Positions 9,425 through 56,984 of a DNA stretch of 64,000 nucleotides are shown one piece after another; position 1 is the first letter of the stretch; each line of letters starts with the position of its first letter. The notes beneath the pieces are model-generated. The model saw only the letters and a list, made by a program, of their open reading frames with translations. It searched no databases and was not told the origin of the DNA. A program made the translations under genes and the position numbers. The stretch is from Polyangia bacterium (GTDB lineage: Bacteria; Myxococcota_A; Polyangia; Fen-1088): the NCBI GenBank assembly GCA_045802645.1, contig JBJMQQ010000131.1, positions 2,050 to 66,049 on the forward strand, written 5' to 3'.

Positions 9425-12061
9425 TTACGGCGCGGCCACGACGGTCTGAGAGCCGTCGTAGCTGACGACCTTGTCCGGCGTCGCCGTGACGGCCAGGCCG
9501 TTGCCGTGGCTGGCGCCGACGAAGACGACGTTGAAGGTGCGCGTGGCCAGCATCCCGGTGAAGGTGCCCGAACGAGCACCGATCGTGAGCTGCTTGGCGG
9601 TGTCGTCCCACGAGAAGTCGATCGTGGCGTACTGGCCCGTCTCGTAGTCGTACGTGTCACCGGCGTCTTCATAGAGCGTGAATGTGCCGTTCTGCCCCTT
9701 GTAGACCCGGATCTCCAGCGGGTCGACGCTCTCGGTCGCGTACTGGATCATCGGCCCCATCGGCAGGATCGACCCCGCCCTCACGTAAAGCGGGATCTGG
9801 CTCAGCGGCGCGGCCGCGGTGCTCATCGCGCCCCCCATGCTGCTGGCGCCGGTCCAGAAGTCGTACCAGGTCCCGGCCGGCAGATAGACCGAGCGGCTGG
9901 TGGCACCCATCGCCGTGACCGGGTTGACCAGCAGCGCCGGGCCGAACATGTACTGGTCCTTGATGCCGTAGACCATGCTGTCGCTCTGGAAGTCGAACAC
10001 CAGCGGCCGCATGATCGTGTAGCCCTCGCTGGTGACCTTCCACGCCAGCGAATAGATGTACGGCATCAACCGGTACCGCAGCTGGTCGATGGCCAGCATG
10101 TTGGCCTTGCCCGCCGCGCTCCAGGGCGTGCCGCCCTGCGGGCCGTAGAGCTCCTTCGCCGCCTGGCCGTGAATGCGGAACGTCGGGCAGAACGCGCCGA
10201 ACTGCAGCCAGCGCGTGAACAGCTCCTCGCTGGGGTTGCCAAAGTAGCCGCCGATGTCGGTGGTCCAGTACGGCAGCCCGGAGGCCGCGTAGCCGAGGCC
10301 GGCGGGGATCTGCGCGACGTAGACGGCCTGGGTCGCGTTGATGTCGCCCGACCAGACGCCGGCGCCGTAGCGCTGCAGCCCCGCGAACCCGCTGCGGGTC
10401 AGGATGTACACCCGCTTGGTCAGCGGCCCGACTTTGCGCCACCCCTCGTAGACGGCGCGGTTGTGTTCCAGCGGGTAGGCGTTGATGTAAAACGCGCCCT
10501 TGCCGAGGGCGGTGGTGGCGGCGTGGACATTCACGCCCTCCGGATAGCTCTGCGGCTCCGTGTTGTCCGCCCAGATGGCGTCCCACCCGTACTTGCCGAT
10601 CAGACGATCGTAGTCCTGCTGGTACGTGAGCGTGCGGGCCGCGGCGTTGAACGTGTCGTAAAAGTGGTACGTGCCACCGGCGGTCGTGTCGGGATAAAGC
10701 GCGTTGATGGCGTCGAGCGCTTTGTAGTTGTCCAGCTCGCCCGCCACCGTCGCCGTCCCGTTCGACCGCGTTTGATAAAGCGGCCAGATCGAGATCATCG
10801 TGTGGATGTGGGCGTTGTGCAGGTCGGTGACCAGCTTGGCCGGGTCCGGATACCGGCTGGCGTCCATCAGATGCGAGCCCCAGACCGCCGGTGACCAGTA
10901 CTGCCAATCCTGGACGATGACGTCGACCGGGATCTTGGCGTTGCGATAGCCAGCCTCGATCGTCATCAGCTCGCTGGTGCTCTGGTAGTGGTCCTTCGAC
11001 TGGAAGAGGCCGTAACCCCACTTCGGAAACAGCGGGGCCGCCCCCGTCGTGGTCCGGTAACCGGCGACGACGTGATCGATGGTCGGGCCGTAGAAGAAGT
11101 AGTAGTCGACGAGGTCGCCCGCCTCCGAGCTGAAGCTGTACTGCGTGTTGCTGCTGGCGTTGCCGGCGAAGTTCGTCGTCGAGTAGTTGTCCCAGAAGAG
11201 GCCGTAGCCCTTGTTGGAGACCAGCACCGGAATCTGGATCTCGGTGTTGGCGTTCAGCATGCGGATCGTCGAGCCCTTGCGGTTGATGACGCCGTCTTGA
11301 TGCTGCCCCAACCCGAACAGCGCCTCGTTGGCGGGCGAGTTGAACGACGCCGCGACGGTGTTGGTGGCGGTGCCCTCGACGGTTGCCGCCTTCAGGCTCT
11401 TGCTGGCCTCGGACACCAGGGTCGTGCCAGCCAGGTCCGCGTAGGTGACGATGCCGGTCGTCTCGTTGACCATGACCTTCATGCGGCTGGTCGTGATGGT
11501 CACGGTCCCGGCGGACTCGGTCACGCAGAACGGCGTCGGCGTCGTCCAGGTGTTGCTGACGGACAGCGAGGACTTCATCGGGATCGCGCTGGCGCTGGTG
11601 TAGGCGACGTGGATGATGTCTTCCTTGCAGACCTGAACTTTTTCTTTGCCGGCCGTCAGCGTGAACGTGACGCCGGTGGTGTCGACGGCGAAGGACGCCC
11701 CCGACGCGTTCGGCCCCGTGCAGGTGACGGGCGGGGACCCCGCCGTGCCCCCCTGTCCGCCGGAACCCACGCCGCCCGAGCCGGGATGGCCACCGGCCGA
11801 CCCGCCGGTGCCGGGGCCACTCCCGCCCTTGGCGCCGCTGCCGCCGGTGCCGATGGTGCCGCCCAGTCCCGCCGTCGTTCCGCCGCTGCCCGGGCCGCTG
11901 CCGCCGCTGCTCGCGTTGCTGCCCCCGGCGGCCGTCGCCCCGGAACCGCCTTGGCCCGGGCTGCCGCCGCTACCCGCGCCGCCAGAGCCCGAGCTGCAGG
12001 AGGCGACCAGCAGCGCGGAACCCAGGAATAAGCCGTGCCGGAACGATGCAAATCGACGCAT
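9425..12061 (-). CDS. glycoside hydrolase family 31 lipoprotein (alpha-xylosidase/alpha-glucosidase type)
   Basis: Lipobox LLVASC is followed by an about 90-aa Gly-rich tether. GH31-like nucleophile region GWDAIWADNTEP and acid/base region GVWSGDINAT. Confidence 0.85.
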   Translation of the reverse strand: MRRFASFRHGLFLGSALLVASCSSGSGGAGSGGSPGQGGSGATAAGGSNASSGGSGPGSGGTTAGLGGTIGTGGSGAKGGSGPGTGGSAGGHPGSGGVGSGGQGGTAGSPPVTCTGPNASGASFAVDTTGVTFTLTAGKEKVQVCKEDIIHVAYTSASAIPMKSSLSVSNTWTTPTPFCVTESAGTVTITTSRMKVMVNETTGIVTYADLAGTTLVSEASKSLKAATVEGTATNTVAASFNSPANEALFGLGQHQDGVINRKGSTIRMLNANTEIQIPVLVSNKGYGLFWDNYSTTNFAGNASSNTQYSFSSEAGDLVDYYFFYGPTIDHVVAGYRTTTGAAPLFPKWGYGLFQSKDHYQSTSELMTIEAGYRNAKIPVDVIVQDWQYWSPAVWGSHLMDASRYPDPAKLVTDLHNAHIHTMISIWPLYQTRSNGTATVAGELDNYKALDAINALYPDTTAGGTYHFYDTFNAAARTLTYQQDYDRLIGKYGWDAIWADNTEPQSYPEGVNVHAATTALGKGAFYINAYPLEHNRAVYEGWRKVGPLTKRVYILTRSGFAGLQRYGAGVWSGDINATQAVYVAQIPAGLGYAASGLPYWTTDIGGYFGNPSEELFTRWLQFGAFCPTFRIHGQAAKELYGPQGGTPWSAAGKANMLAIDQLRYRLMPYIYSLAWKVTSEGYTIMRPLVFDFQSDSMVYGIKDQYMFGPALLVNPVTAMGATSRSVYLPAGTWYDFWTGASSMGGAMSTAAAPLSQIPLYVRAGSILPMGPMIQYATESVDPLEIRVYKGQNGTFTLYEDAGDTYDYETGQYATIDFSWDDTAKQLTIGARSGTFTGMLATRTFNVVFVGASHGNGLAVTATPDKVVSYDGSQTVVAAP

Positions 12062-12103
12062 GACGGGCTACTGCGCCCGGCCCCAGCCGGTTTTGCAGAA
12101 ATT

Positions 12104-13102
12104 TCAGGGGCTGTAAGTCGCGGGATCCGTGAGGATGTGCCAGAAGCGCGCCGTCGCCGGCGCCGCCTTGCTCTGCGTCACGAGCCAGCCCGGCCCGCCC
12201 ATGTTGGTCATGAGATCGGGGCCCGCGGTAGCACCGGGGCCGACCGTCGAACCGGCCGCCACCCGCTCGACGGTCACGGCGAACTCGGGAACGCCCACGG
12301 CGATGATTCCCACCTGGTCGGCCGATTGCTGCAAGGTCCAGATGTTCGGCTGCTTGGCGGCGATCCACGCGCCGAACGGGTTCGCCGGTAGCTGAGCGAC
12401 GCTGGACGCGGGGACGTCGGTGAGCTGGTCGTAGTAGGCGCTCACTTGAACGAAGGGAAGCGACCCGGTCACGATCGCGTCCGCCCACGGGTCCATCTCG
12501 CCGTTCGGGTTGCTCATCGCGCCGCCGGTCGCCGTGACGGTCCCCAGCGAGGAGACGACGACGATGCGGCTGACGATTGTCGGATCGATCAGGACCGCAT
12601 CGGCCACGTCAGTCAAACGGCCACCCGTCACCACCACCAGGGGTCGATAAGGAAGACTCAGCCGTGCGGCGGCGTCCACGATCAGGCGCGCGCCTTCCGA
12701 GCGGTTGGGCGTCGTCGAGGTGAACCGCCCGTCCGCGGGACGGACCAGGGGCGGACCGATGCTGGCGATCGGGTCGGGGATGTCGCGCATCCCGCTGGCG
12801 CGCGCCGCCGCCACCATGCCGCGCCACCCGGCGATGTTCGCGTCGATGTCCGGCCACGGGCCGCTGGTGTTCACGACGATGCCCGCCAGCTTCGGGCCGC
12901 CGCCGCTGGACAGCAGGATGGCGTACTCGCCCTGCCAGTTCTCGTTCGCGCTGTCGTTCGCGAGGATGACCGGGTTGCGCTGATCGACGGGAAGGGCGCC
13001 GTGGTGCACCGTCGAGCCGAGATCCCGAGTCTCGACGCAGCCGAGCGCGCTCAGCCCGAGGCATAGCGCCAACGCCGTGGCCGACCTCGCGCCCGTCGTC
13101 AT
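12104..13102 (-). CDS. lipoprotein with nucleoside-hydrolase-like fold and degenerate Asp motif
   Basis: Internal ATG at 13102 gives MTTGARSATALALCLGLSALGC (lipobox). NPVILANDSANENWQGEYAILLSSGG...LAGIVVNT resembles the IUNH/DUF1593 N-terminus but lacks DxDxxxDD. An ATGA overlap links it to the upstream gene. Confidence 0.5.
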   Translation of the reverse strand: MTTGARSATALALCLGLSALGCVETRDLGSTVHHGALPVDQRNPVILANDSANENWQGEYAILLSSGGGPKLAGIVVNTSGPWPDIDANIAGWRGMVAAARASGMRDIPDPIASIGPPLVRPADGRFTSTTPNRSEGARLIVDAAARLSLPYRPLVVVTGGRLTDVADAVLIDPTIVSRIVVVSSLGTVTATGGAMSNPNGEMDPWADAIVTGSLPFVQVSAYYDQLTDVPASSVAQLPANPFGAWIAAKQPNIWTLQQSADQVGIIAVGVPEFAVTVERVAAGSTVGPGATAGPDLMTNMGGPGWLVTQSKAAPATARFWHILTDPATYSP

Positions 13103-14094
13103 GGAAACCGCACCAGCGCGTCGACGCCCAGCGCAGCGGCGAACCGCGGGGCGGTCCAGACCGGCAGGTTGTCGAGCGTGCCCCGCCAGCGGGTCAGCGC
13201 CGCGAGGCCGTCCGCGTGCGCAGCGACGACCACGCGCCGCCCGAAACCGTGTGCCGCGCCCAGACGCAGGCCAGCCTGGACGACGGGCGCAACGGCCGAG
13301 GTCGGGCGATCGATGTCCACGCCGGCCAACCTGACCACGCCCGCGTTGGCCAGGACGCACGCCGTCCACGGCGCGCGCAGCGCGCACCCGGCCGCGCCCA
13401 GCAGGAGATGCTGCTGCGAGAACCCGGCCCCGTCCGCCCGCCGGGTCGTCGCCGGGACACTGGTCTGCGCGGCCACTTCGATCGCGACGTGGGTCCACGC
13501 CAGCACGCCGAAGATCCGCCCGAGGACGATCGGGGCGTCCGCCATGCCGAACGCGACCGCGGGGCCGGCGCCGATCGCCAGCTCCGGCCCCGACCTGTGG
13601 CGCGCGGGGGGCGCGACGGGCGCCACGGAGACAACAACCGGAAGCGGCGGCGGTTCGGGTGGCGGGGTCGGCGCGGCCGCCTGGGCTGGCGCGTCCGGCT
13701 CCGCGCGCACGTTCGCGAGGAGCTGAATCTGAACGGCCAGCGCAAACCCCACCACGCGCGCGAAACGCGCGCAGTCCGTCGTCACCGTCGGGAACGTCTG
13801 GTCGCCCGTCCAGGCCCCAGCCGCGTCCCGCCACTCGAGCCGCCCCTCGATCGCGCCACTGCGGGGAACCACCTGCACGAGCACGCGATCGGGCGCGCCC
13901 GCGGCAAAGGGGTCGTACCCCAGCCGGCCGACGACGACCGCTTTGAACTCCGCGGCGCCGGGACAGCCTGGGCCGGCCACGTACTCCAGCGTGACCTTGA
14001 ACGGCTTCGTCTCCGCCCGCGCAGGATTCCGCCCGAACAACAAGACCCACGCAGTCGCCGCACAGAGCAGCGGACGTACGCGGCCGGCGCCCAC
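13099..14094 (-). CDS. hypothetical exported protein (third gene of ECF cassette A)
   Basis: GTG at 14094 lies one nt after the anti-sigma stop and gives VGAGRVRPLLCAATAWVLLFGRNPARAE (signal-like). An N-terminal domain and a Pro-rich linker are followed by an Ala/Gly/Val-rich beta-like C-terminal half. Confidence 0.5.
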   Translation of the reverse strand: MGAGRVRPLLCAATAWVLLFGRNPARAETKPFKVTLEYVAGPGCPGAAEFKAVVVGRLGYDPFAAGAPDRVLVQVVPRSGAIEGRLEWRDAAGAWTGDQTFPTVTTDCARFARVVGFALAVQIQLLANVRAEPDAPAQAAAPTPPPEPPPLPVVVSVAPVAPPARHRSGPELAIGAGPAVAFGMADAPIVLGRIFGVLAWTHVAIEVAAQTSVPATTRRADGAGFSQQHLLLGAAGCALRAPWTACVLANAGVVRLAGVDIDRPTSAVAPVVQAGLRLGAAHGFGRRVVVAAHADGLAALTRWRGTLDNLPVWTAPRFAAALGVDALVRFP

Positions 14095-14095
14095 C

Positions 14096-14845
14096 TCAAT
14101 CCCTTTCGGCGCTGTCGACCCGCGGTAGGAGAACGCTGCGGGGGAACCGAATGCCGAACGTGACCGCCGCCCGATGCGCCTCTCCGGTGCGCCCGGCGCC
14201 CAGCAGGCAGCGCACCTGCAAGGCGTCTCGCTCTTCGGAGAGGTGCCCCCGCGGAAAGCGCCGGGCATGGTCCGCGAGCAGCGTCAGCGCGCTGGCAAAT
14301 TCGTGCCGCGTGTACGCCGCCTGCGCGCGCTGAAGCAGCTCGAGCTCGGCGTTCACCGGTTCGACGCTGGCCGCCACCCGGAACGATCGGGCGGGTCTGA
14401 CCCGCACGGCGCGCTGGACCACCGGTTGGTCGGCGGCGGACGGCGCGGTCTGGACGGGGCGAACACGAATCCCGGGACGGGCCGGCATCGGGGCCGCGGG
14501 CGTTGCGACAGGATCGGGCGCGACCACCTCCGGTTCGGCGTCCCGGCCGCGCAGCGACGCGATCGCGCCGACCGCGACGGCCACCACGGCCACCGCCGCC
14601 GCGAACGCGATCCGCATGCGCGCAGGCGCGCGGGTCTGCACCCACGACGGCGACAACGAATGCAGCGCCGGGGCGTCCCCGGGCCAGGCGGCGGGCTTCA
14701 CGCCGCCCGCGCTGACAATCACGCGGGCTCGCGCCAGCGCGCGCGCCTGCACGTCCGGCGGCGCCCGCCGGACGATCTTCGGCGGGTGGACCAGGGACTC
14801 CAGCTCCGGGTCCAACGCGTCGGGCGGGAGATCGGGCCGCGTCAT
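14096..14845 (-). CDS. anti-sigma factor-like single-pass membrane protein with TPR-like C-terminus
   Basis: ATG at 14845 overlaps the sigma stop (ATGA). Central TM helix IAFAAAVAVVAVAVGAIA. C-terminal ELELLQRAQAAYTRHEFASALTLLADHARRFPRG. Confidence 0.6.
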   Translation of the reverse strand: MTRPDLPPDALDPELESLVHPPKIVRRAPPDVQARALARARVIVSAGGVKPAAWPGDAPALHSLSPSWVQTRAPARMRIAFAAAVAVVAVAVGAIASLRGRDAEPEVVAPDPVATPAAPMPARPGIRVRPVQTAPSAADQPVVQRAVRVRPARSFRVAASVEPVNAELELLQRAQAAYTRHEFASALTLLADHARRFPRGHLSEERDALQVRCLLGAGRTGEAHRAAVTFGIRFPRSVLLPRVDSAERD

Positions 14846-15396
14846 TTCGCCACGGCCTTCCGCTTCAACCGCCGCAGTGCCGACGCCAGCTCGCGCCGCC
14901 CCTTGTAGAGGCGGGTGTAGACACCAATCTTCGTCATCGAAAGCCGGCGCGCGATCTCGACGATCTCGACCCCCTCGAGGTCGTGTAGCACCACGACCGA
15001 TCGCCGCGCCAGCGGAACCCGGTCCAGCGCCGCCGACAGGCTGACCAGCGCCTCGCGATCCTGCAGCAGCGCCTCGGGGCTGGCTGTGGCGTCCTCCAGC
15101 TCGAAGTCGGAGCAAAGGACCTCGCGCGCGCGGCGGCGGCGCTGCGCGCGCAGCACCCGGAACGTCACCCCGAATAGCCACGGGCGAAGCGACCGCGTGA
15201 GGTCCAGGTTCGGCCAGTGCCGGTAAAGGACCAGGAAGATCTCCTGCAGGAGGTCGTCGATCTCGCCGGGACCGGCTCCCAGCCGCTGCAGCGTCATGTA
15301 GAGGTAGTCGAGCTCTTGCTGGAACGCGTCGAGACACCCGCTCTCGGCCTGGGCCGAGGGGCTCGCGTCTGACCGGACGAGGCGCAGGCGACCCAT
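14842..15396 (-). CDS. ECF (sigma-70 family group 4) RNA polymerase sigma factor
   Basis: Region 2 DDLLQEIFLVLYRHW...RPWLFGVTFRVL. Region 4 RRSVVVLHDLEGVEIVEIARRLSMTKIGVYTRLYKGRREL. Confidence 0.85.
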   Translation of the reverse strand: MGRLRLVRSDASPSAQAESGCLDAFQQELDYLYMTLQRLGAGPGEIDDLLQEIFLVLYRHWPNLDLTRSLRPWLFGVTFRVLRAQRRRRAREVLCSDFELEDATASPEALLQDREALVSLSAALDRVPLARRSVVVLHDLEGVEIVEIARRLSMTKIGVYTRLYKGRRELASALRRLKRKAVAK

Positions 15397-15447
15397 GGAA
15401 CCATCAGTATTGTCGCGAGCGGGCGCATTTTGGCCCGAAATTTCGCG

Positions 15448-32330: not shown

Positions 32331-32720
32331 ATGGCGCAAAAGAAGGTTCTGCTGGTCGAGGACGATCTGGAAATCCGAGACATCCTGCAGGATCTGCTAG
32401 AGGCCGAGGGATACGACGTCATCCCGGCCAGCCACGGGCGTCAGGCGCTGGAGTTCCTGGTCGCCTCGCCCAGCGAAGCGCTGCCCGACCTGGTGGTGCT
32501 CGACATGATGATGCCTCTCGTCGACGGCTCCCAGGTGCTGGCGTCCATGAAGAGCGATCCGAAGCTGTCGCCCATCCCCGTTGTCGTCATGAGCGCCGTC
32601 GCGCGCGAACGGCCGGCCGGCGCGGCCGCGTTCCTGCGCAAGCCGATCCCGCTGCAGAAGCTCTTCGACACGATTCGCGACTTCGTCGAGCGCGGCTTTC
32701 CGCGGCTCGCGTCGACGTAA
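32331..32720 (+). CDS. stand-alone response regulator receiver protein (CheY-like)
   Basis: ATG at 32331. KKVLLVEDDLEIRDIL...DLVVLDMMMPLVDG...VVVMSA...FLRKPI. Confidence 0.85.
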   Translation: MAQKKVLLVEDDLEIRDILQDLLEAEGYDVIPASHGRQALEFLVASPSEALPDLVVLDMMMPLVDGSQVLASMKSDPKLSPIPVVVMSAVARERPAGAAAFLRKPIPLQKLFDTIRDFVERGFPRLAST

Positions 32721-32724: not shown

Positions 32725-33330
32725 TTACCTGTCGTGTCGCGTGGGTGGCGCGCCCGCGTACGCCGCCGGATTCGCGACGGGCGGCGGCGCGTGATCCCGT
32801 TCCGCCAGCGCCAGCGGGGCCTGGATGCTGGAGGCCTCTGCCTCCTCCGCTTCGAGGATGGCGAGATCGCGCGACGGTAGCTCGCACGTCTGGCGGACCT
32901 GCCGCGCGCGTTCGATCTGTCCCAGGCGGTAATACGCGACGAGCCGCCAGAAGCACCCCTCGGGATCGCTGCGCGAGTCGAGATCCCGCAGGTGGAACAG
33001 CACCGTCTCCCAGCGATCGCCCTCGACGGCGGCCGCGCGCGCCGCTTTCTCGGCGTCGGCCAATCGGTCGCGGCGATTTTGCTCCAGCGCGCGGCGCGTC
33101 GCCGCCGCCTGACTTGGAAACGGCGTCAACGTCACGTTCTCGTTGATGGCCCCGTGCGTCGGCCCGACGGCCGATGGGTGCACCCCGTCGTTGCGGTGCA
33201 ACCAATGCCTGGACTTGCCGTGGGCGGTGTTGTGCTTTTTCGCGGCCGGCGGCTTCGCGCTGGCGGGCGCGGTCGCGGCGAGGACCAACCCCAACGTCAC
33301 AGCCCCCAGGGTAGTACGCAGTGAGGCCAT
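32725..33330 (-). CDS. hypothetical secreted protein
   Basis: ATG at 33330 gives MASLRTTLGAVTLGLVLAATAPASA (signal peptide). No recognisable domain. Confidence 0.45.
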   Translation of the reverse strand: MASLRTTLGAVTLGLVLAATAPASAKPPAAKKHNTAHGKSRHWLHRNDGVHPSAVGPTHGAINENVTLTPFPSQAAATRRALEQNRRDRLADAEKAARAAAVEGDRWETVLFHLRDLDSRSDPEGCFWRLVAYYRLGQIERARQVRQTCELPSRDLAILEAEEAEASSIQAPLALAERDHAPPPVANPAAYAGAPPTRHDR

Positions 33331-33428
33331 GACCTCAGGATACCGATTCTCGCGCGGCCGCAAAATCTCTTATTTCACGCCCGCAAACGCTTTTGACGCG
33401 CGATCTCCATTAGTATTCACGACTCCCG

Positions 33429-34070
33429 ATGACGTTCCTGACGGGACATGTCCGCCTGCGGCTGGTCGCGGCCGACGGCAGCGCGGATCAGACGCCCGAC
33501 GCCGACCTCGCGCGCGCGCTGATTGCGGGCGATCCGTCGGCGGCCGAGATCGCGTGGGAGCGCTACGCGCCGCTGGTGCATCGGATCGTCAGCCGCGCGC
33601 TGGGACCGGAGGCGGAGGTCGAGGACGTCACGCAGGAGATCTTCTACCGCCTGTTCACGCGCGTCCGTTCGTTGCGCAAACCAGAGGCTCTGCGCAGCTT
33701 CGTCGTTTCGTTCGCGCTGCGGATCGTGAAGTGGGAGTTGCGCCGGCGGCGCGCGCGACGGTGGCTGACGCTGTCGGAGACCGGCGAGCTGCCGGACAAT
33801 CAGCTGCTGTACGTCACGGCGGACAGCCGGTACGCGTTGCGCCGCCTGTACCGGCTGCTCGATCAGCTGGCGACCCGCGATCGCCTGGTGCTGGTGTTGC
33901 GGCACGTCGAAGGCATGACGCTGGAAGAGATCGCCGAGGCGCTCGGCATCTCGCTGGCGACGGTGAAGCGATCGTTGCAGTACGGCGCGGCGCGCCTGTC
34001 GGCGCTGGTCGACTCGGACGCGGCGCTGCGAAAACCCGGTCGCCGCGTGGTGCGGAGACTGCGCAAATGA
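33429..34070 (+). CDS. ECF sigma factor (cassette B)
   Basis: Region 2 EDVTQEIFYRLF...LRSFVVSFALRIVKWELRR. Region 4 RLVLVLRHVEGMTLEEIAEALGISLATVKRSL. Confidence 0.85.
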   Translation: MTFLTGHVRLRLVAADGSADQTPDADLARALIAGDPSAAEIAWERYAPLVHRIVSRALGPEAEVEDVTQEIFYRLFTRVRSLRKPEALRSFVVSFALRIVKWELRRRRARRWLTLSETGELPDNQLLYVTADSRYALRRLYRLLDQLATRDRLVLVLRHVEGMTLEEIAEALGISLATVKRSLQYGAARLSALVDSDAALRKPGRRVVRRLRK

Positions 34071-35383
34071 GCCCAGAACAGCCGGACGGCCCGCCCGACG
34101 GCGAGCTAGGACCGCAGGCAGCCGCCCTGATGGCGCGCGCCCGCGAAGAGCTGGGGCAGCCGCCGCACGACGCGGACCGGCAGGGGCTGGACGCGATTCG
34201 CGCGCGGCAGGCGTTGCGCCAGCGCCGCTGGACTCGGTCGCTGGTGCTGGGCGGGGTGGCGGCTGCGGCGGCGCTGGCCCTAGTGATTCCGCGCATCTCG
34301 TCGCATCGTGAGTCCGCGACCGCGGAACGGAACGTGCCGCCGCTGGCGGTGCGGATCGAGGGCGCGTCGCTGGCGAGGAACGGCACCATCCAGGCGGCCG
34401 CCGGCGCGGTGCCGGCGCTGCGATTTGGGGACGGCACGCGGATCGACCTTGGCGCGGGCACGAAGGGGCGCCTGGCGTCCGTGGACGAGCACGGCGCGCA
34501 CGTCGCGATCGCCGACGGCAGCGCGGCGGTCAACGTCGCGCCGCGCCCGCACGCGCGATGGCAGATCGACGCGGGGCCCTTCACGATCCACGTGCACGGG
34601 ACCGTTTTCACGGCCGCCTGGAACGCGACCGAGCAGCGTCTGGACGTGCGCCTTCAGCGCGGATCGATCTCGGTCGACGGCCCGCTGACCACCGGCGCGA
34701 TCCCGATGCGCGCCGGCCAGCGGCTGACCGTCGCGCTGCCCCAGTCACGCGTGCTGCTGCGCCCCATTCAGGACGGCGATCAAGCAGCAGGCGACGAGGA
34801 GGACGCGCCCGCGGCACACGTGGCGGAAGACGTGCCCGCCGCGCCGACCGTGGCGCCCGCGCCGGCGACCCGCGCCCCAGCGCGCGTGCGAGAGGTCCAC
34901 GACGCGCGCGCGTGGCCCGCGGCGCTGGCGGCCGGTGACTTCGCGACGATCGTGCAGGAGGCCAGCCGCGATGTGGGTGGCGTGCTGCGGACCGCCGGCG
35001 CTGACGATCTGGCGGCGCTCGCGGACGCGGCCCGGTATCAGCGGCGCGACGACCTGGCGCGCCGGGCGCTGACGGCGCAGCGGCAGCGGTTCCCCCGATC
35101 GCCGCGCGCGGTCGACGCCGCGTTCTTCCTGGGCCGACTGGATGAGAATGGCGGCGGCGGCCTCATCCACGCGCTGCGGTGGTACGACCGCTACCTCGAA
35201 GAGGCGCCCAACGGCGCCTACGCGGCCGAGGCCCTGGGCCGGCGGATGATTGCGCTGCGCGAGCTTTACGGGAGCGCGGCCGCCCGCCCCGTCGCCGAGC
35301 TCTACGTGCGCCGGTTTCCCCGCGGCAGCTATGCCGGCGCCGCCCACGCCTTGCTGGGCGACAGCCCCGCCGCCGCCCCGTGA
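34067..35383 (+). CDS. FecR-domain anti-sigma factor with TPR-like C-terminus
   Basis: The ATG at 34067 overlaps the sigma stop (ATGA). TM helix SLVLGGVAAAAALALVI. FecR pattern FGDGTRIDLGAGTKGRL...IADGSAAVNV...FTIHVHGTVFTAAW. Confidence 0.75.
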   Translation: MSPEQPDGPPDGELGPQAAALMARAREELGQPPHDADRQGLDAIRARQALRQRRWTRSLVLGGVAAAAALALVIPRISSHRESATAERNVPPLAVRIEGASLARNGTIQAAAGAVPALRFGDGTRIDLGAGTKGRLASVDEHGAHVAIADGSAAVNVAPRPHARWQIDAGPFTIHVHGTVFTAAWNATEQRLDVRLQRGSISVDGPLTTGAIPMRAGQRLTVALPQSRVLLRPIQDGDQAAGDEEDAPAAHVAEDVPAAPTVAPAPATRAPARVREVHDARAWPAALAAGDFATIVQEASRDVGGVLRTAGADDLAALADAARYQRRDDLARRALTAQRQRFPRSPRAVDAAFFLGRLDENGGGGLIHALRWYDRYLEEAPNGAYAAEALGRRMIALRELYGSAAARPVAELYVRRFPRGSYAGAAHALLGDSPAAAP

Positions 35384-36429
35384 AGCGGGGCTGGCTGGTG
35401 GCCGTCGCCCTGCTGGCATCGTCCGGGGCCCTGTTCGCGGCGGCGCCCGCGCCTCTGCCGCGCGTCGTGCTGGTTCGTCCCGCGTCGGCGCCGGCGTCCG
35501 TCACCGCGGCGCTGGTTCGCCTGCGCGGGGAGCTGATCGGGGCCGGCTTCGACGCCGACGTCCTGGACCTGCCGCTGGGCGCCGACGCCCGCGCGTCGCT
35601 GGAGAAGTTCGCGCCGCCGGCGTCCAACGCGAAATCCGCGACGGCGCTGGTGGCGGTCGTCGCCAGCGCCGACCCGGGCAGCGCCGAGCTATGGGTCATC
35701 GACCGCGTGACCGGCAAGACCGTGGTCCGCCGCGTGAACGCCGCGGCGGACGATCCCGCGCGCGTCGCCGAGATCCTGGCCGTGCGCGCCGTCGAGCTGC
35801 TGCGCGCCAGCTTCCTCGAGCTCGCCATCACGCCGGCCGCGGACGCGGCACCCCGTCCGACCACGGCGCCAGCCGTCGAGCGCTGGGCCACCGCGCCCCT
35901 GGACGCGCGGGACTGGACGTGGGCGATCGAGGCGGGCGGCGCGACCGCGGCCGCGGTGGGCGGCCCCTGGAACGTCTTCCTGCCGGTGGCTCGGATTGAG
36001 CGAGCGGTGGGGCGACGAGCGTGCATCCGCCTCGGGTTCGCCGGCCTGGGGACAGCCAGACGGGTCTCCGCGCAAACCGGGTACGCCGATCTTTCCCAGA
36101 CGGTCGTCGTCGCCGAGACGCTGCTGCGGTTCCGGCGCGGACAGCGGGTCGAACCGCTGATCTCGGCAGGCGCGGGCGCGCTGCGGCTGGACGTCGACGC
36201 CCACCAGACGGGGCCCTATCAGCCGGTGGGCGGCACGCGCTGGGGAGCGGCGGGCGATCTGGGGGTCGGCGTCCGCTTCCCGCTGCGCGGACGCCGGTTC
36301 GAGCTGGGCGCCGAAGCGCACGCCGTGTTCGCCCAGCCCTTCCCGACCGCCCAGTATTTCGGGCACGAGCTCGCGCGTGTCGGCCGCCCCACGCTGCTGG
36401 CGACGCTGACGCTTCTGGGGGGGCTGTGA
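35380..36429 (+). CDS. hypothetical exported protein (third gene of ECF cassette B)
   Basis: The GTG at 35380 overlaps the FecR stop (GTGA) and gives VKRGWLVAVALLASSGALFAAAP. An N-terminal alpha/beta-like domain and a linker are followed by a beta-rich C-terminal half. Confidence 0.5.
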   Translation: MKRGWLVAVALLASSGALFAAAPAPLPRVVLVRPASAPASVTAALVRLRGELIGAGFDADVLDLPLGADARASLEKFAPPASNAKSATALVAVVASADPGSAELWVIDRVTGKTVVRRVNAAADDPARVAEILAVRAVELLRASFLELAITPAADAAPRPTTAPAVERWATAPLDARDWTWAIEAGGATAAAVGGPWNVFLPVARIERAVGRRACIRLGFAGLGTARRVSAQTGYADLSQTVVVAETLLRFRRGQRVEPLISAGAGALRLDVDAHQTGPYQPVGGTRWGAAGDLGVGVRFPLRGRRFELGAEAHAVFAQPFPTAQYFGHELARVGRPTLLATLTLLGGL

Positions 36430-37184
36430 TCCGGCGGCTGGCGCTTGCGACGGTGCTGGCCGCCGGGGGCTGCACGGCGGCACCGATCGAGATCGCGACG
36501 CTGGGGCAGAGCGCGCTCAGCGACGGCCTCATCGCCCACTGGGCGTTCGACGAGGGGACGGGCGCGTCCGTCGCCGATCAATCGGGCAACGGTCACAACG
36601 GCCTGCTTCAGGGTCCGGCTTGGTCCTGGACGCCGGCGGGGCGGTTCGGGTCCTCCATTCACCTGTCGGGCTCCGATGTGGTGACGATGACGAATTTCCC
36701 GGCGGCAACGACCAGCTACACCGTCAGCGCCTGGGTTCTCGTCGCCTCCACCGAGCTGGGCGCGCCTGTCGCGAACCTGCTCAGCACCGAGGTCCCAGGC
36801 GGCGGCTGGGCCCTGTACACGCTGACGGGCGGCGGACCGCCGACGTACGCGTTCCGTTACGCCGTCAATGCGCCCCAGCAGTTCTGGAACGCATTCTGCG
36901 ACTGTCTGATCCCCGACGTCTGGACGCACGTCGCGGCGGTCGTCGATAGCGATGCCGGGACGCTGCAGCTCTACGTGGGCACGGCGCCGCCGGTGACGAC
37001 GCCGGTCACGACGAGCATCGTTCCGGGCAGCACGACGCTGAACATCGGCCGCTCGACGCTGCAGCAACCGGGCGCCGCGTTTCCGCTGCTGGGCGCGCTG
37101 GACGACATCGCGATCTACAACCGCGCGCTTGGCCCCGAGGAGATCGCCGCCCTGAGCACCGCGCCCGCGACGAATCCGCACTGA
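36426..37184 (+). CDS. LamG/concanavalin A-like (Laminin_G_3) lipoprotein
   Basis: The GTG at 36426 overlaps the upstream stop (GTGA). Lipobox VLAAGGC. LIAHWAFDEGTGASVADQSGNGHNGLLQG...GRFGSSIHLSG...LDDIAIYNRAL is the typical LamG_3 pattern. Confidence 0.7.
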   Translation: MIRRLALATVLAAGGCTAAPIEIATLGQSALSDGLIAHWAFDEGTGASVADQSGNGHNGLLQGPAWSWTPAGRFGSSIHLSGSDVVTMTNFPAATTSYTVSAWVLVASTELGAPVANLLSTEVPGGGWALYTLTGGGPPTYAFRYAVNAPQQFWNAFCDCLIPDVWTHVAAVVDSDAGTLQLYVGTAPPVTTPVTTSIVPGSTTLNIGRSTLQQPGAAFPLLGALDDIAIYNRALGPEEIAALSTAPATNPH

Positions 37185-37238: not shown

Positions 37239-38546
37239 ATGAGCATCGACGGCGGCAGGCCCGGACCGGCGACCGCCCCGCGGCCCCTGGGTGGCTGGTC
37301 TTTGCTGGCGCTTGGGCTGAACGGCGTCATCGGCGTCGGCATCTTCTTCACGCCGGGGCTGGTGGCCGCGCTGGTCCCCGGGGTGCGTGGCGCGTGGGCC
37401 TACGGCTTGACGGCCGCGATCCTGGCTCCCGTGGCGATGGTCTACGCGACCCTCGGCCAGAGGTTCGACCGCGACGGCGGACCGTACGTGTGGGCGCGCG
37501 CGGCGTTCGGGATGCCCGCCGCGTTCGCGGTTGGTTGGACGGCCTACGTCTCGGCGATCCTGAGCACCGCGGCCGTGGTCGCGGGGGTGGGCCACTCGCT
37601 GGGCGCGCCGCTGGGACTGGGCCCGTCGGGCCAGCGTCTGCTGAGCCTGCTCGCCGGCGGCCTCTTGATGGCGGTGACCGCCTGCGGGTTGCAGCCGAGC
37701 GCGCGGATCTGGAACGCGCTCACGGTCGCCAAGCTCCTGCCGTTGCTGCTGCTGGTGGCGGCGTTTGCGTGGCGCGCGACGGAGCTGGCACCAGCCGCGC
37801 TGTCGCCAGTCCCCGAGAGCCACGACGGATGGGGGCGCGCCGTCTTGCTGGCCGTCTTCGCGCTACAGGGATTCGAGATCGTTCCGGTGCCGCGCGGACA
37901 CGCGCGCGACGGGGCGCGGGCCGTTCCGCTGGCGACGTTCGGGGCGCTCGCGCTGCCGGCGCTGCTTTACGCGGCCATCCAGCTGGCCTGCGTCCGGGCG
38001 GTCCCCGACCTGGCGGCCCGCGATGCGCCGCTGGCCGCGGCGGCCGCCGTGCTGGGCGGCCGTCAACTTGGGTGGGTCGTCTCGATCGGCACCGATGTGT
38101 CGGCGATCGGCATCGCGTTCGGGATGGCCGCGATGACGCCGCGCTACCTCGTCGCGTTGGCCCAGGACGAGACGCTTGGTCCCACGGTCGGTCGATGGCT
38201 GCGCGCGGAGTCGCGCGGGCAGGTGCCGGTGCGGGCCCTCGGCGTGACCGCGGTGCTGGTCGGCGTGCTCGTCGCTGGACGGGGGCTGGGCGGCCTCTTC
38301 GTCTTGTCGGGCCTGGCGGTGCTGGTCCAGTACGCGACCAGCGCGCTGGCGCTGTCCAAGTTGGCCTGGACGCGCGCGCTGGGTGTTCGCCGCCGCGACG
38401 TGGTGTGGGCGCCGCTATCGGCGGCAGCGGTGCTGTTCATGGTTCGCGCGGCGCAGCCGGGAGAGGTGGCGATCCTGGCCGGCGTGCTCGTGGCCGGGTT
38501 TGTGCTTCTCGCCGTCGGTCGACGCGCCTCGGCGTTTCGGGCCTGA
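37239..38546 (+). CDS. APC-family amino acid/polyamine permease
   Basis: 435 aa with 12 helices. The N-terminus LLALGLNGVIGVGIFFTPG is typical of the APC superfamily. Confidence 0.8.
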   Translation: MSIDGGRPGPATAPRPLGGWSLLALGLNGVIGVGIFFTPGLVAALVPGVRGAWAYGLTAAILAPVAMVYATLGQRFDRDGGPYVWARAAFGMPAAFAVGWTAYVSAILSTAAVVAGVGHSLGAPLGLGPSGQRLLSLLAGGLLMAVTACGLQPSARIWNALTVAKLLPLLLLVAAFAWRATELAPAALSPVPESHDGWGRAVLLAVFALQGFEIVPVPRGHARDGARAVPLATFGALALPALLYAAIQLACVRAVPDLAARDAPLAAAAAVLGGRQLGWVVSIGTDVSAIGIAFGMAAMTPRYLVALAQDETLGPTVGRWLRAESRGQVPVRALGVTAVLVGVLVAGRGLGGLFVLSGLAVLVQYATSALALSKLAWTRALGVRRRDVVWAPLSAAAVLFMVRAAQPGEVAILAGVLVAGFVLLAVGRRASAFRA

Positions 38547-38601
38547 AGCAGAGTCGGTCACAAATTCCGTTTTCGCGCCCCTTGTCTGATGAGGACATCG
38601 G

Positions 38602-39909
38602 ATGCGCGAAAAGAGGACTCTCACGTTCGCCGGGGCTGCGCTGGTTTTGCACCTCGCGTTGCTCGGATGTTCCCCGTCCAATCCTGCTGATCCGTCCGGC
38701 AGCGGCGGGCAAACGGCGACCGGCGGCACGAACACGGGCGGCGCCACGACCGCGACCGGCGGCTCGACGCCGGGCTCCGGGGGCGGAACCGGCGGACGCT
38801 CTGACACGGAGGGAACGGGTGGCGAACAGTCGAGCGGCGGAGCGAGCCCCGGTGGCAGCAACGGCAGAGGTGGCACTCCAGGCGCTGGCGGAACGGCCGG
38901 CGGCGGGGCCGGCGGGGGCGCCAGCGGCAGCGCGGGCACCGTCGGAACCGGCGGCGCCGGAGCGATCGGCGGCGGCACGTTGCCCGGAGACATCGCGGCC
39001 AGCGCAGGAACACCCCTGGTGGCGGCCCACAGCATGATTCGGGCGATGTACGCGGCCTACAACGGCAAGCTCTTTCAGGTCAGACGCTCCGACGGAAAAA
39101 CTCAGGACATCGGCCCGGCCAGCGCCGGCGGCAAGGTCGACGCGAGCGCATTGAGCACGTTCTGCGCGGCAAGTAGCTGCACGATCGCGGTGCTGTACGA
39201 CCAGAGCGGAAACGCAAACCACCTTCCGCAGACGGACGCGGCCAGCCAGATGTTGCTGCAGTACTACGCGACGCCGGGCGGCGCCCAGGTTCCCATGGCG
39301 GTGACGGTCAGCAAGCAGTACCTCAGGAACAGAACCAGCACGACCAAGATCCCGCTGGGCGCCGCAAGCCAGACCGAATACTTCGTCGTGAACACGAAGT
39401 TCTTCAATGAGAAGTGCTGCTGGGACTACGGCAACATGGAGCAGGTGGCCAAGGTCTCCAGCACCAACGGCCCCGGCAAGATGAGCGCGCTCAACATCGG
39501 CACCAGCGACAACGGCTACGCCAACCCGGGCGCTGGCTCCGGCCCGTGGGGAATGGTGGACTACGAAGCGGGCGTGTACTCCGGTGCCTATCGGATCGGG
39601 CAAGTGAATCCGAACAACCCTTCACTCACGTGGCCCATCGCCACGGTTTTGTCCAAGACCAACGGGACGACCACCTGGGTTCTGAAGGTCGGTGACGCAG
39701 CCAACGGGACGCTCATCACCGCGTGGAACGGCGCGCTGCCTCCCGGCTACAACCCCCTCAAACAAGAGGGTGGCCTGTCGCTGGGCGAAGGCGGTGACGG
39801 CTCCAAGCTGGGAACCGGTGCGTTCTTCGAAGGGGTCGTCATCGCGGACGTGACCAGCGACGCAACCGATGCGGCCATCCAGGCCGGCTTGATGACGATC
39901 TTCAAGTAG
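38602..39909 (+). CDS. lipoprotein with GH54-like (alpha-L-arabinofuranosidase B catalytic) domain
   Basis: Lipobox LALLGC and a Gly-rich tether. The domain aligns by eye to fungal AbfB: TPLVAAHSMIRAMY, GGKVDASALSTFCA...CTIAVLYDQSGNANHL, KCCWDYGNME, GSGPWGMVDYE, GYNPLKQEGGLSLGEGGDGS...GAFFEGV. Confidence 0.7.
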   Translation: MREKRTLTFAGAALVLHLALLGCSPSNPADPSGSGGQTATGGTNTGGATTATGGSTPGSGGGTGGRSDTEGTGGEQSSGGASPGGSNGRGGTPGAGGTAGGGAGGGASGSAGTVGTGGAGAIGGGTLPGDIAASAGTPLVAAHSMIRAMYAAYNGKLFQVRRSDGKTQDIGPASAGGKVDASALSTFCAASSCTIAVLYDQSGNANHLPQTDAASQMLLQYYATPGGAQVPMAVTVSKQYLRNRTSTTKIPLGAASQTEYFVVNTKFFNEKCCWDYGNMEQVAKVSSTNGPGKMSALNIGTSDNGYANPGAGSGPWGMVDYEAGVYSGAYRIGQVNPNNPSLTWPIATVLSKTNGTTTWVLKVGDAANGTLITAWNGALPPGYNPLKQEGGLSLGEGGDGSKLGTGAFFEGVVIADVTSDATDAAIQAGLMTIFK

Positions 39910-39918
39910 GCCGCCGTC

Positions 39919-40989
39919 TCAGGGCAGGCAGTTGACGCGCTTGGTGTCGAGCACGATGTCGTCGTAGTAGACGTCGAACGCGTAGGTCGCCGGGTGCCAT
40001 ATGTAAAACCCGAACCCGAAGTCGCTGAACCCGCCGACCTGACCGCTGGTCTTGCCGCCCAGTGAGATGGGGGTGAAGGAGAAGTCCTCCTTGCCGTCGA
40101 CGAACACGCGGGCCAGGTCGGGCGTGTCGTTGAACTCCCACTCGAGGCAGATCCACTTCTTCACGGGCAGCGTTCCACCCATCGAGTAGGTCTCGGTCGT
40201 CCCTGACGTGGCCGCCGCGCTGGACGTGATGCCGGTTTGATCCACCGACGTGAGCTGCCAGCCGGACTCGTAGCTCGCCACCTCCAGCCGCTTGAACTTC
40301 GGAAACCCCGATGACCCGGCCCACAACAACGTCATGTGCTGCGCGGGGGGCATCGGCGTGATGTAGAAGTAGGCCCGCCCGAAGTGATGCCCGGCAAGGG
40401 CAGCCGGGGCGTTCTTGGTGATGATGAGGTCGTAGCTGAGGATGTTTGGAAGCGCATGGAATTGAGCCGCGTACGTCCCGTGGGCTGCCATCCCCTTCTG
40501 AACGACCACCGTCTGCCCGCCGAAGGTCTGGACGTTCCAGACCGCGGGATCCAGCTTGCCGCTCTCGAAGTCCTCGCAGAAGAGCCCTGCGCATGCGCCG
40601 GGCGGGGTGCCGCCGTCGGTCGGTGAGCCTCCCGCCCCTGGCGGCGCGCCGCCGCGGCCGCCGGACGCGCCCTGCCCTGCGGCGCCCCCCGTCCCGCGCG
40701 TTCCAGCTGCGCCGGTGCCGCCGCTCGCCGCGCCTCCAGTCGCCGTCGCGCCGGTTCCGATGACGCCGCCCGTTCCACCGGCGCCGCCAGCGATCCCGCC
40801 CCCTCCGCTACCGCCGCTTTGGGTCGCCCCCCCGCTACCCGACGATGCCGGCTGACCTCCCGCGCCGCCGGTTCCAGGGCCGGGGGGCCCGCCGCCCGAC
40901 GACGCGCAAGCCGCGCCTGCCACAGAAACCGCGAACAGGACGGCCATGCGAACACGCGCGCGGGGCCGGGGCTTCTGCTGCTGGATCAT
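39919..40989 (-). CDS. secreted concanavalin A-like jelly-roll protein with Gly-rich tether
   Basis: ATG at 40989 (MIQQQKPRPRARVRMAVLFAVSVAGAAC). A 110-aa Gly-rich region is followed by CAGLFCEDFESGKLDPAVWNV... and a C-terminal FDVYYDDIVLD, typical of lectin/glucanase-fold domains. Confidence 0.5.
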   Translation of the reverse strand: MIQQQKPRPRARVRMAVLFAVSVAGAACASSGGGPPGPGTGGAGGQPASSGSGGATQSGGSGGGGIAGGAGGTGGVIGTGATATGGAASGGTGAAGTRGTGGAAGQGASGGRGGAPPGAGGSPTDGGTPPGACAGLFCEDFESGKLDPAVWNVQTFGGQTVVVQKGMAAHGTYAAQFHALPNILSYDLIITKNAPAALAGHHFGRAYFYITPMPPAQHMTLLWAGSSGFPKFKRLEVASYESGWQLTSVDQTGITSSAAATSGTTETYSMGGTLPVKKWICLEWEFNDTPDLARVFVDGKEDFSFTPISLGGKTSGQVGGFSDFGFGFYIWHPATYAFDVYYDDIVLDTKRVNCLP

Positions 40990-51362: not shown

Positions 51363-51905
51363 GTGTTGAGGGTACATGCGGGAGGCGACACCCGAGTGGC
51401 CCTGGACGTCGAAGGACTCTATCTACGGTACGGACCGGCGGTGCTCCGTCGCTGCCGGTCGATCTTGCGAGATCCCGGCGCCGCCGAGGACGTGGCCCAG
51501 GAGGTGTTCGTGAGCGCGCTGCGGTTCGAGGCACGCCTGCGGGACGAGGCGCCGGGCGCGCTGCTGCTGCGCATCGCCACGAACCTGTCGCTGAACCGGT
51601 TGCGCGGCGAGCGCCGCCGGCCGGAGGACGCGGACCCGGACGTCGCGCTGCGAATCGCCCGCGCGGGCGACGACGGCGCCTCGGCCGAGAGTCGGGCCGT
51701 CGCGCGCAACCTTCTGGCGCGGCTGTTCCGCCCGGACGATCCGCTGGCGGCGTCCACGCAGACGCTGGCGTTCATGCACCTGGTCGACGGGATGACGCTG
51801 GACGAGGTCGCGCGGGAGGCGCGGCTGTCCGTCTCGGGCGTCCGCAAACGGTTGCGCACGCTGCGCGGCCGGCTGGCCGAATTGCAGGAGGACGGGTCGC
51901 GATGA
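51363..51905 (+). CDS. ECF sigma factor
   Basis: Region 2 EDVAQEVFVSAL...LLLRIATNLSLNRLR. Region 4 LAFMHLVDGMTLDEVAREARLSVSGVRKRL. Confidence 0.85.
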   Translation: MLRVHAGGDTRVALDVEGLYLRYGPAVLRRCRSILRDPGAAEDVAQEVFVSALRFEARLRDEAPGALLLRIATNLSLNRLRGERRRPEDADPDVALRIARAGDDGASAESRAVARNLLARLFRPDDPLAASTQTLAFMHLVDGMTLDEVAREARLSVSGVRKRLRTLRGRLAELQEDGSR

Positions 51906-56294: not shown

Positions 56295-56984
56295 CTACTG
56301 GCGTGACAGGGCCAGCAGGATGCGCCCGCGCAGCGTCAGCGGTTGCAGCTTGCCTTCGTTCACGACCAGCGCGATGCAGGGCTCGCCCGGCGCGACCCGC
56401 TGCTGGTGGCGCTCGCCCGGTTCGCGTACGGAGATATCCCCCCGCCCGAAGCGGGCGCCCTCTTCTTCCAGCGCGCCGCTGAAAACGACGATGTGCTCAG
56501 GACCGCCGTGATCGTGCAGGGGGATCGTGATCCCGCCCTTGAAGGCGATCAGCCGAACGACGTCGTCGGCTGCGCCAACCGGCAGGTTGATCGCCCGGAC
56601 GCCCGGAATCACGAGCCGCCAGCGAACCGGTACTTGCGCCCGCCCCAGGACGGCTCGCAGCGTCCGCGGCAGGCCATACGGACGCAGCAGCTCCGGGACC
56701 TCGGGCAAGGCGGCGGCCGCTCTTGGTTGCGGCGCCGCGTCCAGCCGCGCCAGCACCGACGCCAGCGCGTCAGGCCGCAGCTCGGCCGATCCGGCGGTCT
56801 CCAGCAAGGCGCCGCCCAGCACCTCCAGCTCGGCGACGCGCGCGCTGCAGGCCGCGCAGAGCGCCACGTGGCAGGCGATCGCCAGCGAGGCCCCCTCGCT
56901 GGCCGTCCCCGCCGCGTGCGCGAGCAACCCCTCGTCGGGAACGTGGTGGTGGATGGTCGGGGTGGTGTTGCCGGACGCCGTCAT
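56295..56984 (-). CDS. chrR: ChrR-type anti-sigma factor (ZAS motif + cupin domain)
   Basis: The ATG at 56984 overlaps the sigma stop (ATGA). HxxxCxxC appears as CHVALCAAC. C-terminal cupin string IPLHDHGGPEHIVVFSGAL. Confidence 0.75.
   Translation of the reverse strand: MTASGNTTPTIHHHVPDEGLLAHAAGTASEGASLAIACHVALCAACSARVAELEVLGGALLETAGSAELRPDALASVLARLDAAPQPRAAAALPEVPELLRPYGLPRTLRAVLGRAQVPVRWRLVIPGVRAINLPVGAADDVVRLIAFKGGITIPLHDHGGPEHIVVFSGALEEEGARFGRGDISVREPGERHQQRVAPGEPCIALVVNEGKLQPLTLRGRILLALSRQ

Follow-up and report, generated by a model that had tools for sequence, protein, structure and literature searches.

Extracytoplasmic function (ECF) sigma/anti-sigma pairs are among the commonest signalling devices of bacteria, and to our knowledge information from outside the inner membrane reaches them by only a few routes, namely through TonB-dependent transducers, by the sensing of porin C-termini, or through the single-chain Dma proteins. 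In a 64,000-nucleotide stretch of a Polyangia genome (hereafter, the window), a preliminary description made from the letters alone had singled out two four-gene cassettes, A and B, in which an ECF sigma gene and an anti-sigma gene are followed by a gene for an exported protein and a gene for a lipoprotein. Cassette B, in the middle of the window, raises the question of what the exported protein and the lipoprotein do beside a sigma/anti-sigma pair. Here we report that the product of the third gene in either cassette, which we call G3, is predicted to be an outer-membrane barrel with a periplasmic domain, and that G3 genes recur in this genome next to genes for one particular type of anti-sigma, that which ends in tetratricopeptide repeats (TPRs). 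We propose that these proteins constitute a TonB-independent trans-envelope ECF switch, a module conserved in Myxococcota, whose contacts and signal would resemble those of better known systems; we put the probability of this reading at roughly 50%. The genome in question comprises 5.89 Mb in 290 contigs, is 85% complete, and has a G+C content of about 70%.

Cassette B consists of four overlapping genes

Cassette B consists of four real overlapping genes (Table 1). The 4-nt overlaps that had been described at its junctions are exact in the sequence (ATGA at 34067, GTGA at 35380, and GTGA at 36426), as are the gene coordinates. All four frames translate cleanly, with a G+C content at third codon positions (GC3) of 0.88 to 0.91, and a gene caller that had learnt the codon usage of this genome returned exactly these four genes, together with exactly the four genes of cassette A. 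The gene content described for cassette B, an ECF sigma, a FecR anti-sigma, an exported protein, and a LamG lipoprotein, agrees with Pfam, in which the exported protein has no family.

G3 is predicted to be an outer-membrane barrel with a periplasmic domain

Neither G3 of the window matched a Pfam or NCBIfam family, and both were modelled with AlphaFold2 (AF2). The mean pLDDT was 74.6 for G3 of B and 81.5 for G3 of A, with barrel blocks mostly between 80 and 95. The two models have the same overall layout. In G3 of B, a signal peptide is followed by an alpha/beta domain (residues 28-148), a disordered linker (149-176), and an 8-stranded barrel (181-348); in G3 of A, the signal peptide is followed by an alpha/beta domain with two cysteines (34-130), a linker, and an 8-stranded barrel (171-330) whose strand pattern is nearly identical. 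When the models were searched with Foldseek, both matched the same solved barrels (the transmembrane domain of OmpA, NspA, OmpX, Ail, OmpW, and OprF) at E values of about 1e-6, and template-modelling (TM) scores of 0.6 to 0.75 on the target assign both to the 8-stranded barrel fold. For G3 of B, the matches to OmpA, NspA, OprF, and OmpX had E values of 5e-7 to 1e-5 and TM scores of 0.67 to 0.75 on the target. AlphaFold and Foldseek thus bear out the layout that had been noticed in both third-gene products, an N-terminal alpha/beta domain, a Pro/Ala linker, and a beta-like C-terminal half, and gave no sign of unrelated folds. The A-type homologues of G3 end in an aromatic residue, F or W, as outer-membrane proteins usually do. 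According to these models, G3 is an outer-membrane protein in which a barrel anchor carries, on a flexible Pro/Ala linker, a small alpha/beta domain in the periplasm.

The kinship of the two G3s is visible only as fold and, for the barrels, through intermediate paralogues. BLASTP found no match between G3 of A and G3 of B, nor between the two anti-sigmas, and when the two G3 families (41 homologues each) were compared profile to profile over their full length, the probability of 0.4% was not significant. A hidden Markov model (HMM) built from A-type sequences alone recovered one B-type G3 at an E value of 6e-6 in the first round, and more of them in later rounds; the A-to-B HMM alignments within the genome span linker and barrel only. 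The profile comparison suggested in the preliminary description therefore failed for the full-length proteins and succeeded, by iterated profiles, for the barrels. Apart from a weak match to PF13505 in 6 of 41 B-type homologues, there was no sequence tie to Pfam barrel families, and profiles of the G3 N-domains matched no PDB sequence. Homologues long enough to suggest anti-sigma-G3 fusions proved to have mis-called starts, and no such fusion was found.

The anti-sigmas of both cassettes end in a TPR unit

Sigma B scored 88.9 bits against the NCBIfam model TIGR02937 (sigma70-ECF; cut-off 42.9), which places it among the ECF (group 4) sigma-70 factors. It shares 27% identity with sigma A (E 6e-6), and among NCBIfam models only the generic ECF ones matched the sigmas. 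Anti-sigma B has a cytoplasmic N-terminus, a transmembrane helix (residues ~57-75), a FecR domain (107-201; PF04773, with a score of 35 bits where the cut-off is 24), and, beyond a Pro/Ala linker, a TPR unit at the C-terminus (~290-430). Anti-sigma A matched no Pfam family, FecR included, and the FecR anti-sigma that had been ascribed to cassette A as well has to be withdrawn.

In profile searches against the PDB, the TPR unit of anti-sigma B matched CpoB (6g5s, E 2e-6) and that of anti-sigma A matched BamD (9pxg, E 3e-6). TPR profiles cross-match widely, and the NCBIfam model ybgF matched anti-sigma B at an E value of 9e-4, far under its cut-off. The two TPR units are homologous (hhalign probability 96%, E 2e-9), in keeping with the shared TPR-like C-terminus described earlier; the RRFPRG(H/S) ending described with it is not equivalent in the two proteins. 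In the hhalign columns, RRFPRGH of A lies opposite EEAPNGAY of B, and RRFPRGS of B lies opposite IRFPRS, the last motif of A, so that the RRFPRG motifs belong to non-equivalent repeats. Both anti-sigmas are single-pass proteins whose periplasmic end is a TPR unit, probably CpoB/BamD-like, which in class B is preceded by FecR. The statement that cassette B mirrors cassette A was accordingly too strong: the type of module is shared, and neither FecR nor any detectable sequence likeness of the G3 N-domains is.

The FecR domain of anti-sigma B contains a Gly-Thr pair, G178-T179, which is kept in 20 of 21 related anti-sigmas. FoxR self-cleaves at a Gly-Thr pair (PMC11637429); the two pairs lie at a similar distance from the membrane helix and by analogy may be equivalent sites.

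G3 genes accompany TPR-type anti-sigma genes

An iterated profile search of the genome found 35 G3 paralogues, 22 of them with an ECF sigma gene at most three genes away; the cassette pattern, for which a genome-wide search had been suggested, does recur. Three layouts were seen: sigma, anti-sigma, G3; G3, sigma, anti-sigma; and G3 divergent from the pair. Among 60 sigma/anti-sigma pairs examined, 27 anti-sigmas have the TPR unit and 33 do not. A G3 gene lies within three genes of 19 of the 27 and of only 1 of the 33 (odds ratio 76, p 2e-8). The lone anti-sigma near a G3 gene that lacks a TPR unit is encoded by a gene cut by a contig end, and four of the eight TPR-type exceptions without G3 also lie at contig ends. 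The type of G3 N-domain follows the type of anti-sigma as well: B-type domains pair only with long FecR+TPR anti-sigmas (7/7), and A-type domains only with short TPR anti-sigmas (9/9). These statistics put the module pattern far beyond chance.

Some of this could also be explained if G3 and the lipoprotein were output only, that is, cargo driven by the sigma factor (for example, envelope proteins accompanying regulated enzymes), without a role in sensing or in control of the anti-sigma. The 4-nt overlaps speak for co-transcription with the sigma gene, it is common for an ECF operon to include targets of its own sigma, genes for lipoprotein enzymes are clustered around the cassettes (see below), and duplication of cassettes as blocks would alone yield the co-occurrence and covariation. 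Against this, the 19/27 versus 1/33 count ties G3 to one periplasmic domain of the anti-sigmas rather than to sigmas generally. The link also survives gene orders that place G3 in a separate transcription unit, upstream or divergent, and a docking partner would be expected to look much like G3, a barrel to which a periplasmic domain is tethered. We regard the cargo explanation as unlikely.

The profile matches of the TPR units bring up another alternative. Under assembly stress, sigma E and DegS act in a pathway that senses porin C-termini; similarly, a BamD-like TPR unit might recognise periplasmic, unassembled G3 and thereby report outer-membrane protein assembly stress. That the matches are to BamD (E 3e-6) and CpoB and that G3 is a predicted outer-membrane barrel would suit such a sensor. 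It would leave the conserved, folded N-domain of G3 without a role, G3 of B has no terminal aromatic beta-signal, and dozens of diverged copies in one genome, each with a lipoprotein of its own and often a glycosidase neighbour, are not what a general stress sensor would lead one to expect. We consider this explanation very improbable.

The fourth genes encode lipoproteins

The lipoprotein of cassette B contains a Laminin_G_3 domain (PF13385, 73.1 bits against a cut-off of 27.6, E 3.6e-20), a concanavalin-like domain, and is kept in 7/7 orthologous B cassettes. The lipoprotein of cassette A, A4, matched IU_nuc_hydro (PF01156) over residues 121-214 only, with 23.1 bits against a cut-off of 34.2 (E 6.7e-5). 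Across 32 family members, one Asp is kept of the N-terminal cluster that we take to be canonical for nucleoside hydrolases, and with the score under the cut-off we rejected A4 as an inosine-uridine nucleoside hydrolase. Of the two binding-type folds that had been assigned to the fourth genes, that of LamG in B is therefore firm and the nucleoside-hydrolase likeness in A is weak. The product of gene 4 is a lipoprotein of the outer-membrane type whose fold is of a binding kind. Of 28 long related loci, 25 contain A4, across three gene orders, and a tag, C-x-E-x3-G, is conserved after the lipobox in its family. In the genome, the same-strand gene after G3 encodes a lipoprotein in 13 of 26 cases, as against 11.5% of all genes (p 1e-6), and the domains of these lipoproteins are varied.

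An alternative close to the preliminary description is that the lipoprotein leads the sensing in the manner of RcsF and OmpA: the gene 4 product would sense a ligand, act via or on the G3 barrel, relay the signal to the anti-sigma, and so set the specificity of each cassette. The 7/7 LamG orthologues, the persistence of A4 through three orders, the varied lipoproteins after half of the G3 genes, and the conserved tag after the A4 lipid cysteine all favour this idea, and RcsF with an outer-membrane protein and IgaA offers a precedent (PMC4942254, PMC7553776). Yet the other half of the G3 genes are not directly followed by a lipoprotein gene, the tag pattern of the wider set was written after the sequences had been seen, and the lipoprotein could equally be an output. 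A leading role of the lipoprotein seems to us quite unlikely.

A second group of lipoproteins is found around the cassettes. Among the 5106 predicted proteins of the genome, 172 are lipoproteins in which a long Gly-rich (xTGG-like) tether immediately follows the lipid cysteine. They include many glycoside hydrolases (GHs), and the tether suggests that the enzymes stand off from the membrane. Their genes, examples of which lie in the window (Table 1), are over-represented up to four genes away from G3 (odds ratio 3.4, p 2e-5) and show no enrichment near other ECF sigma genes.

The module is conserved in related genomes, and its surroundings vary

Homologues of the cassette proteins come almost only from metagenome-assembled Polyangia (Myxococcota). 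The order of cassette B (sigma, FecR anti-sigma, G3, LamG) and its wider neighbourhood are syntenic in 7/7 Polyangia loci, with G3 identity down to 54%; B-type G3 is present in 18/18 genomes sampled from the genus of this one and was found only rarely in other genera. Relatives of cassette A were found at 3 loci in a protein index and at 38 in species-representative genomes, all of uncultured organisms. Although the order of the genes takes three forms, their sigma, TPR anti-sigma, G3, and A4 remain together, and a GH31 gene adjoins the cassette in 13 of 28 long loci. The A-type G3 profile matched 4074 clusters at 50% identity (E<=1e-3) among 1.84 billion representatives, and the sigma/anti-sigma/G3 triad also occurs in two genomes of other Myxococcota classes; the genomes with hits include complete ones. 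Both the expectation that the pattern would recur in related genomes and the view of the two cassettes as copies of one recurring module, with a shared G3 fold and many copies here and in relatives, have thus held.

Downstream of cassette B, an APC permease, a GH54-type arabinofuranosidase lipoprotein, and a 356-aa Gly-tethered lipoprotein are encoded at 37239-40989, between the LamG and DUF2254 genes. In orthologous loci the DUF2254 gene follows LamG directly or after one unrelated gene, and in the window it lies 3.8 kb further on; the three intervening genes are therefore a genome-specific insertion. None of the 7 orthologous B loci carries the permease or GH54, and we rejected both as part of the cassette. 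The transport and glycan-active genes reported to flank the cassettes (APC permease, GH54, and GH31) are all present, and the tie of the first two to cassette B falls away. At the same spot, one related locus (L001) has a 339-aa gene and other loci have different genes; the spot looks like a variable insertion site.

Upstream and divergent from sigma B, a gene on the minus strand (32725-33363) encodes a 212-aa protein without a Pfam family, and a gene for about 200-250 aa is placed likewise in at least 6 of 7 related loci. Because the whole neighbourhood is syntenic, no link of this gene to the cassette can be claimed. Just beyond it lies a gene for a single-domain response regulator (32331-32720). 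A hybrid histidine kinase of 1025 aa, which combines two HisKA/HATPase pairs with a receiver domain, is encoded on the minus strand (15448-18525) immediately upstream of cassette A; it takes the same place in one related locus (L010).

The window contains two further ECF loci. A third module with overlapping genes (51396-54990, plus strand) encodes a sigma of 169 aa, a 276-aa protein without a Pfam match, which is probably the anti-sigma, and a 753-aa caspase (Peptidase_C14) protein. A fourth locus (56295-57544, minus strand) is a pair of a 187-aa sigma and a ChrR-type cupin anti-sigma (PF12973), a type of pair known from singlet-oxygen responses.

Candidate promoters and outputs

Upstream of A-type sigma genes in 23 loci, we found an element composed of ATTTCGG with TGAACA or GCCAAA, 16 nt, and GACA(A/G)TA, which ends 5-14 nt before the start. 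A site before the GH31 gene of the window is similar to the promoter of sigma A, except that its spacer has one more base. A relaxed pattern occurs at 17 sites in the whole genome and at 4 in the reversed sequence. Five sites lie just before gene starts, namely those of sigma A, GH31, a paralogous sigma (contig C182), an anti-sigma homologue, and one other gene. In six other loci (L039, L043, L032, L012/L033, and L022), a similar site lies ahead of a gene for GH31 or for another Gly-tethered lipoprotein. Judged from these sites, GH31 is likely a regulated output of cassette A.

Before sigma B, a -10-like box reads TAG(G/T/C)AT in the alignment of 7 orthologous upstream regions, in which no conserved -35 box was found. 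A conserved AT-rich box considered as a promoter turned out to be the ribosome-binding site of the divergent upstream gene, on the other strand. A gapped-word search found no promoter common to all G3-linked sigma genes of the genome. The -10-like boxes of sigma A, sigma B, and GH31 lie 6-12 nt before the starts, so near that the transcripts are predicted to be leaderless or nearly so.

Table 1. Features of cassettes A and B and associated elements in the window
Feature	Position	Strand	Description
ECF sigma B	33429..34070	+	213 aa; Pfam Sigma70_r2, r4_2, Sigma70_ECF; NCBIfam sigma70-ECF; GC3 0.88
Anti-sigma B	34067..35383	+	438 aa; Pfam FecR; TPR unit with a profile match to CpoB
G3 of B	35380..36429	+	349 aa; barrel by AF2 and Foldseek
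LamG lipoprotein B	36426..37184	+	252 aa; Pfam Laminin_G_3; lipobox LAAGG/C (cleavage before C)
ECF sigma A	14842..15396	-	184 aa; NCBIfam sigma70-ECF
Anti-sigma A	14096..14845	-	249 aa; transmembrane helix ~77-98, Pro-rich linker, TPR pair 171-238; no Pfam match
G3 of A	13099..14094	-	331 aa; barrel by AF2 and Foldseek
A4 lipoprotein	12104..13102	-	332 aa; weak partial nucleoside-hydrolase-like match
GH31 lipoprotein	9425..12061	-	878 aa; Pfam Glyco_hydro_31 domains; Gly-rich tether
Gly-tethered lipoproteins	9425..12061; 38602..39909; 39919..40989	-; +; -	Including GH31, a GH54-like protein, and a 356-aa protein
Conserved sigma A promoter	15408..15440	-	TTTCGG-GCCAAA, N16, GACAATA; 12 nt before ATG
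Promoter-like GH31 site	12069..12101	-	TTTCT-GCAAAA, N17, CGCAGTA; 8 nt before start codon
-10-like box before sigma B	33411..33416	+	TAGTAT; 12 nt before start; putative function

No TonB-dependent receptor accompanies the module

The genome has 13 FecR-type proteins and 12 Plug-domain receptors. All of the receptors are encoded on other contigs and none on that of the window, and no STN domain (PF07660) was found anywhere in the 85%-complete genome, in a search in which control genomes scored as expected. The earlier observation that no TonB-dependent receptor is present therefore holds for the contig. A few ECF sigma genes elsewhere lie about 1.5-3 kb from a Plug-domain receptor hit, on contigs C26 (17746-22310) and C219 (7567-9589); the anti-sigma near the hit on C26 has FecR and TPR, with no G3 nearby.

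A proposed trans-envelope switch

We propose that the periplasmic domain of G3 docks on the TPR end of the anti-sigma and so bridges the inner and outer membranes, as a two-protein counterpart of Dma. The dock would keep proteases of the periplasm off the anti-sigma, much as FoxR is protected by the signalling domain of FoxA. A signal, either sensed by the partner lipoprotein or consisting of a change in the outer membrane, would break or alter the dock; the anti-sigma would then be degraded and the sigma freed. The freed sigma would transcribe its own operon and nearby lipoprotein enzyme genes, for example GH31 in the case of cassette A, and no TonB-dependent transducer would take part. Docking, protection, proteolytic release, and the role of the lipoprotein are modelled on FoxA/FoxR, Dma1, and RcsF.

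Several observations weigh against this proposal. The N-domains of the two G3s, which would be the docking parts, have profiles without detectable sequence similarity, and a TolB-like fold indicated for the N-domain by Foldseek superposed poorly (root-mean-square deviation 17-21 Å) and was not counted. G3 of B ends in LLGGL, without the C-terminal aromatic residue usual in outer-membrane proteins. On the side of the outputs, the GH31 match in the window came from a pattern written after the site had been seen, and nhmmer searches with the sigma A promoters missed that site, though they recovered sigma genes, including left-out ones. Before sigma B and its neighbours, neither a conserved ECF-type promoter nor a shared element was found. 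Finally, co-occurrence and covariation are also expected from block duplication of whole cassettes; they attest to linkage, not contact, and G3 and the lipoprotein may instead be cargo.

If the switch operates as proposed, the module would add another route to ECF pairs, built on an unannotated protein family with about 4,000 clusters at 50% identity for the class A profile alone. In this genome, at 85% completeness, about a third of the 60 sigma/anti-sigma pairs examined belong to the module. The large sets of tethered glycan-degrading enzymes in uncultured soil Polyangia may be controlled in this way, and the module would give synthetic biology an orthogonal, compact trans-envelope switch.

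Comparison with known systems

Our literature searches found no description of the module. The nearest published remark concerns ECF267 of the ECF classification 2.0, for which a FecR-like anti-sigma containing TPRs is mentioned (PMC7826278). Unlike the module, that group is linked with a protein kinase, and its description includes no barrel partner. The module appears to represent a large, undescribed family of myxobacterial gene switches built on G3, a protein family without a Pfam or NCBIfam model.

The systems FecI-FecR-FecA of E. coli and FoxI-FoxR-FoxA of Pseudomonas (PMC11637429) likewise combine an ECF sigma and its single-pass anti-sigma with a protein of the outer membrane that carries a tethered periplasmic domain, and in FoxA this signalling domain protects FoxR (PMC11637429). 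As in the module, many paralogous copies occur per genome, and the class B anti-sigma has FecR and a Gly-Thr pair at about the position of FoxR cleavage. Unlike them, the module has no TonB-dependent transducer, plug, or STN domain; the TPR unit of the anti-sigma replaces the usual FecR C-terminal domain; the G3 barrel, with 8 strands, is too small for substrate transport; and class A is without FecR.

In Rcs, an envelope stress system of enterobacteria, RcsF, the barrels OmpA, OmpC, and OmpF, and IgaA (PMC4942254, PMC7553776) carry information across the envelope by means of an outer-membrane lipoprotein sensor, a barrel, and an inner-membrane partner, the same kinds of component as in the module. 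Its output, however, is a phosphorelay, and its barrels are general porins rather than dedicated partners encoded beside the sensor.

In Dma1, a single chain joins an anti-sigma domain by a linker to an 8-stranded barrel; the authors of the Dma study saw no similar protein beyond Bacteroidota (PMC10927553). Dma and the module have in common that an anti-sigma function is linked to an 8-stranded outer-membrane barrel via a long disordered periplasmic linker, and both are independent of TonB. On a wider view, which we hold to be possible though doubtful, the module would be a general, TonB-independent two-protein bridge by which Myxococcota relay information from the outer membrane or the outside to an ECF sigma. 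Dozens of copies would work in parallel in a genome, each of them paired with one lipoprotein and in control of one surface-tethered glycan enzyme, and the module would be a split Dma and a counterpart of the polysaccharide-sensing systems of Bacteroidota. Whereas Dma is one polypeptide, anti-sigma and barrel are here separate proteins that both have a folded periplasmic domain, and a bridge between the membranes would therefore need contact between them.

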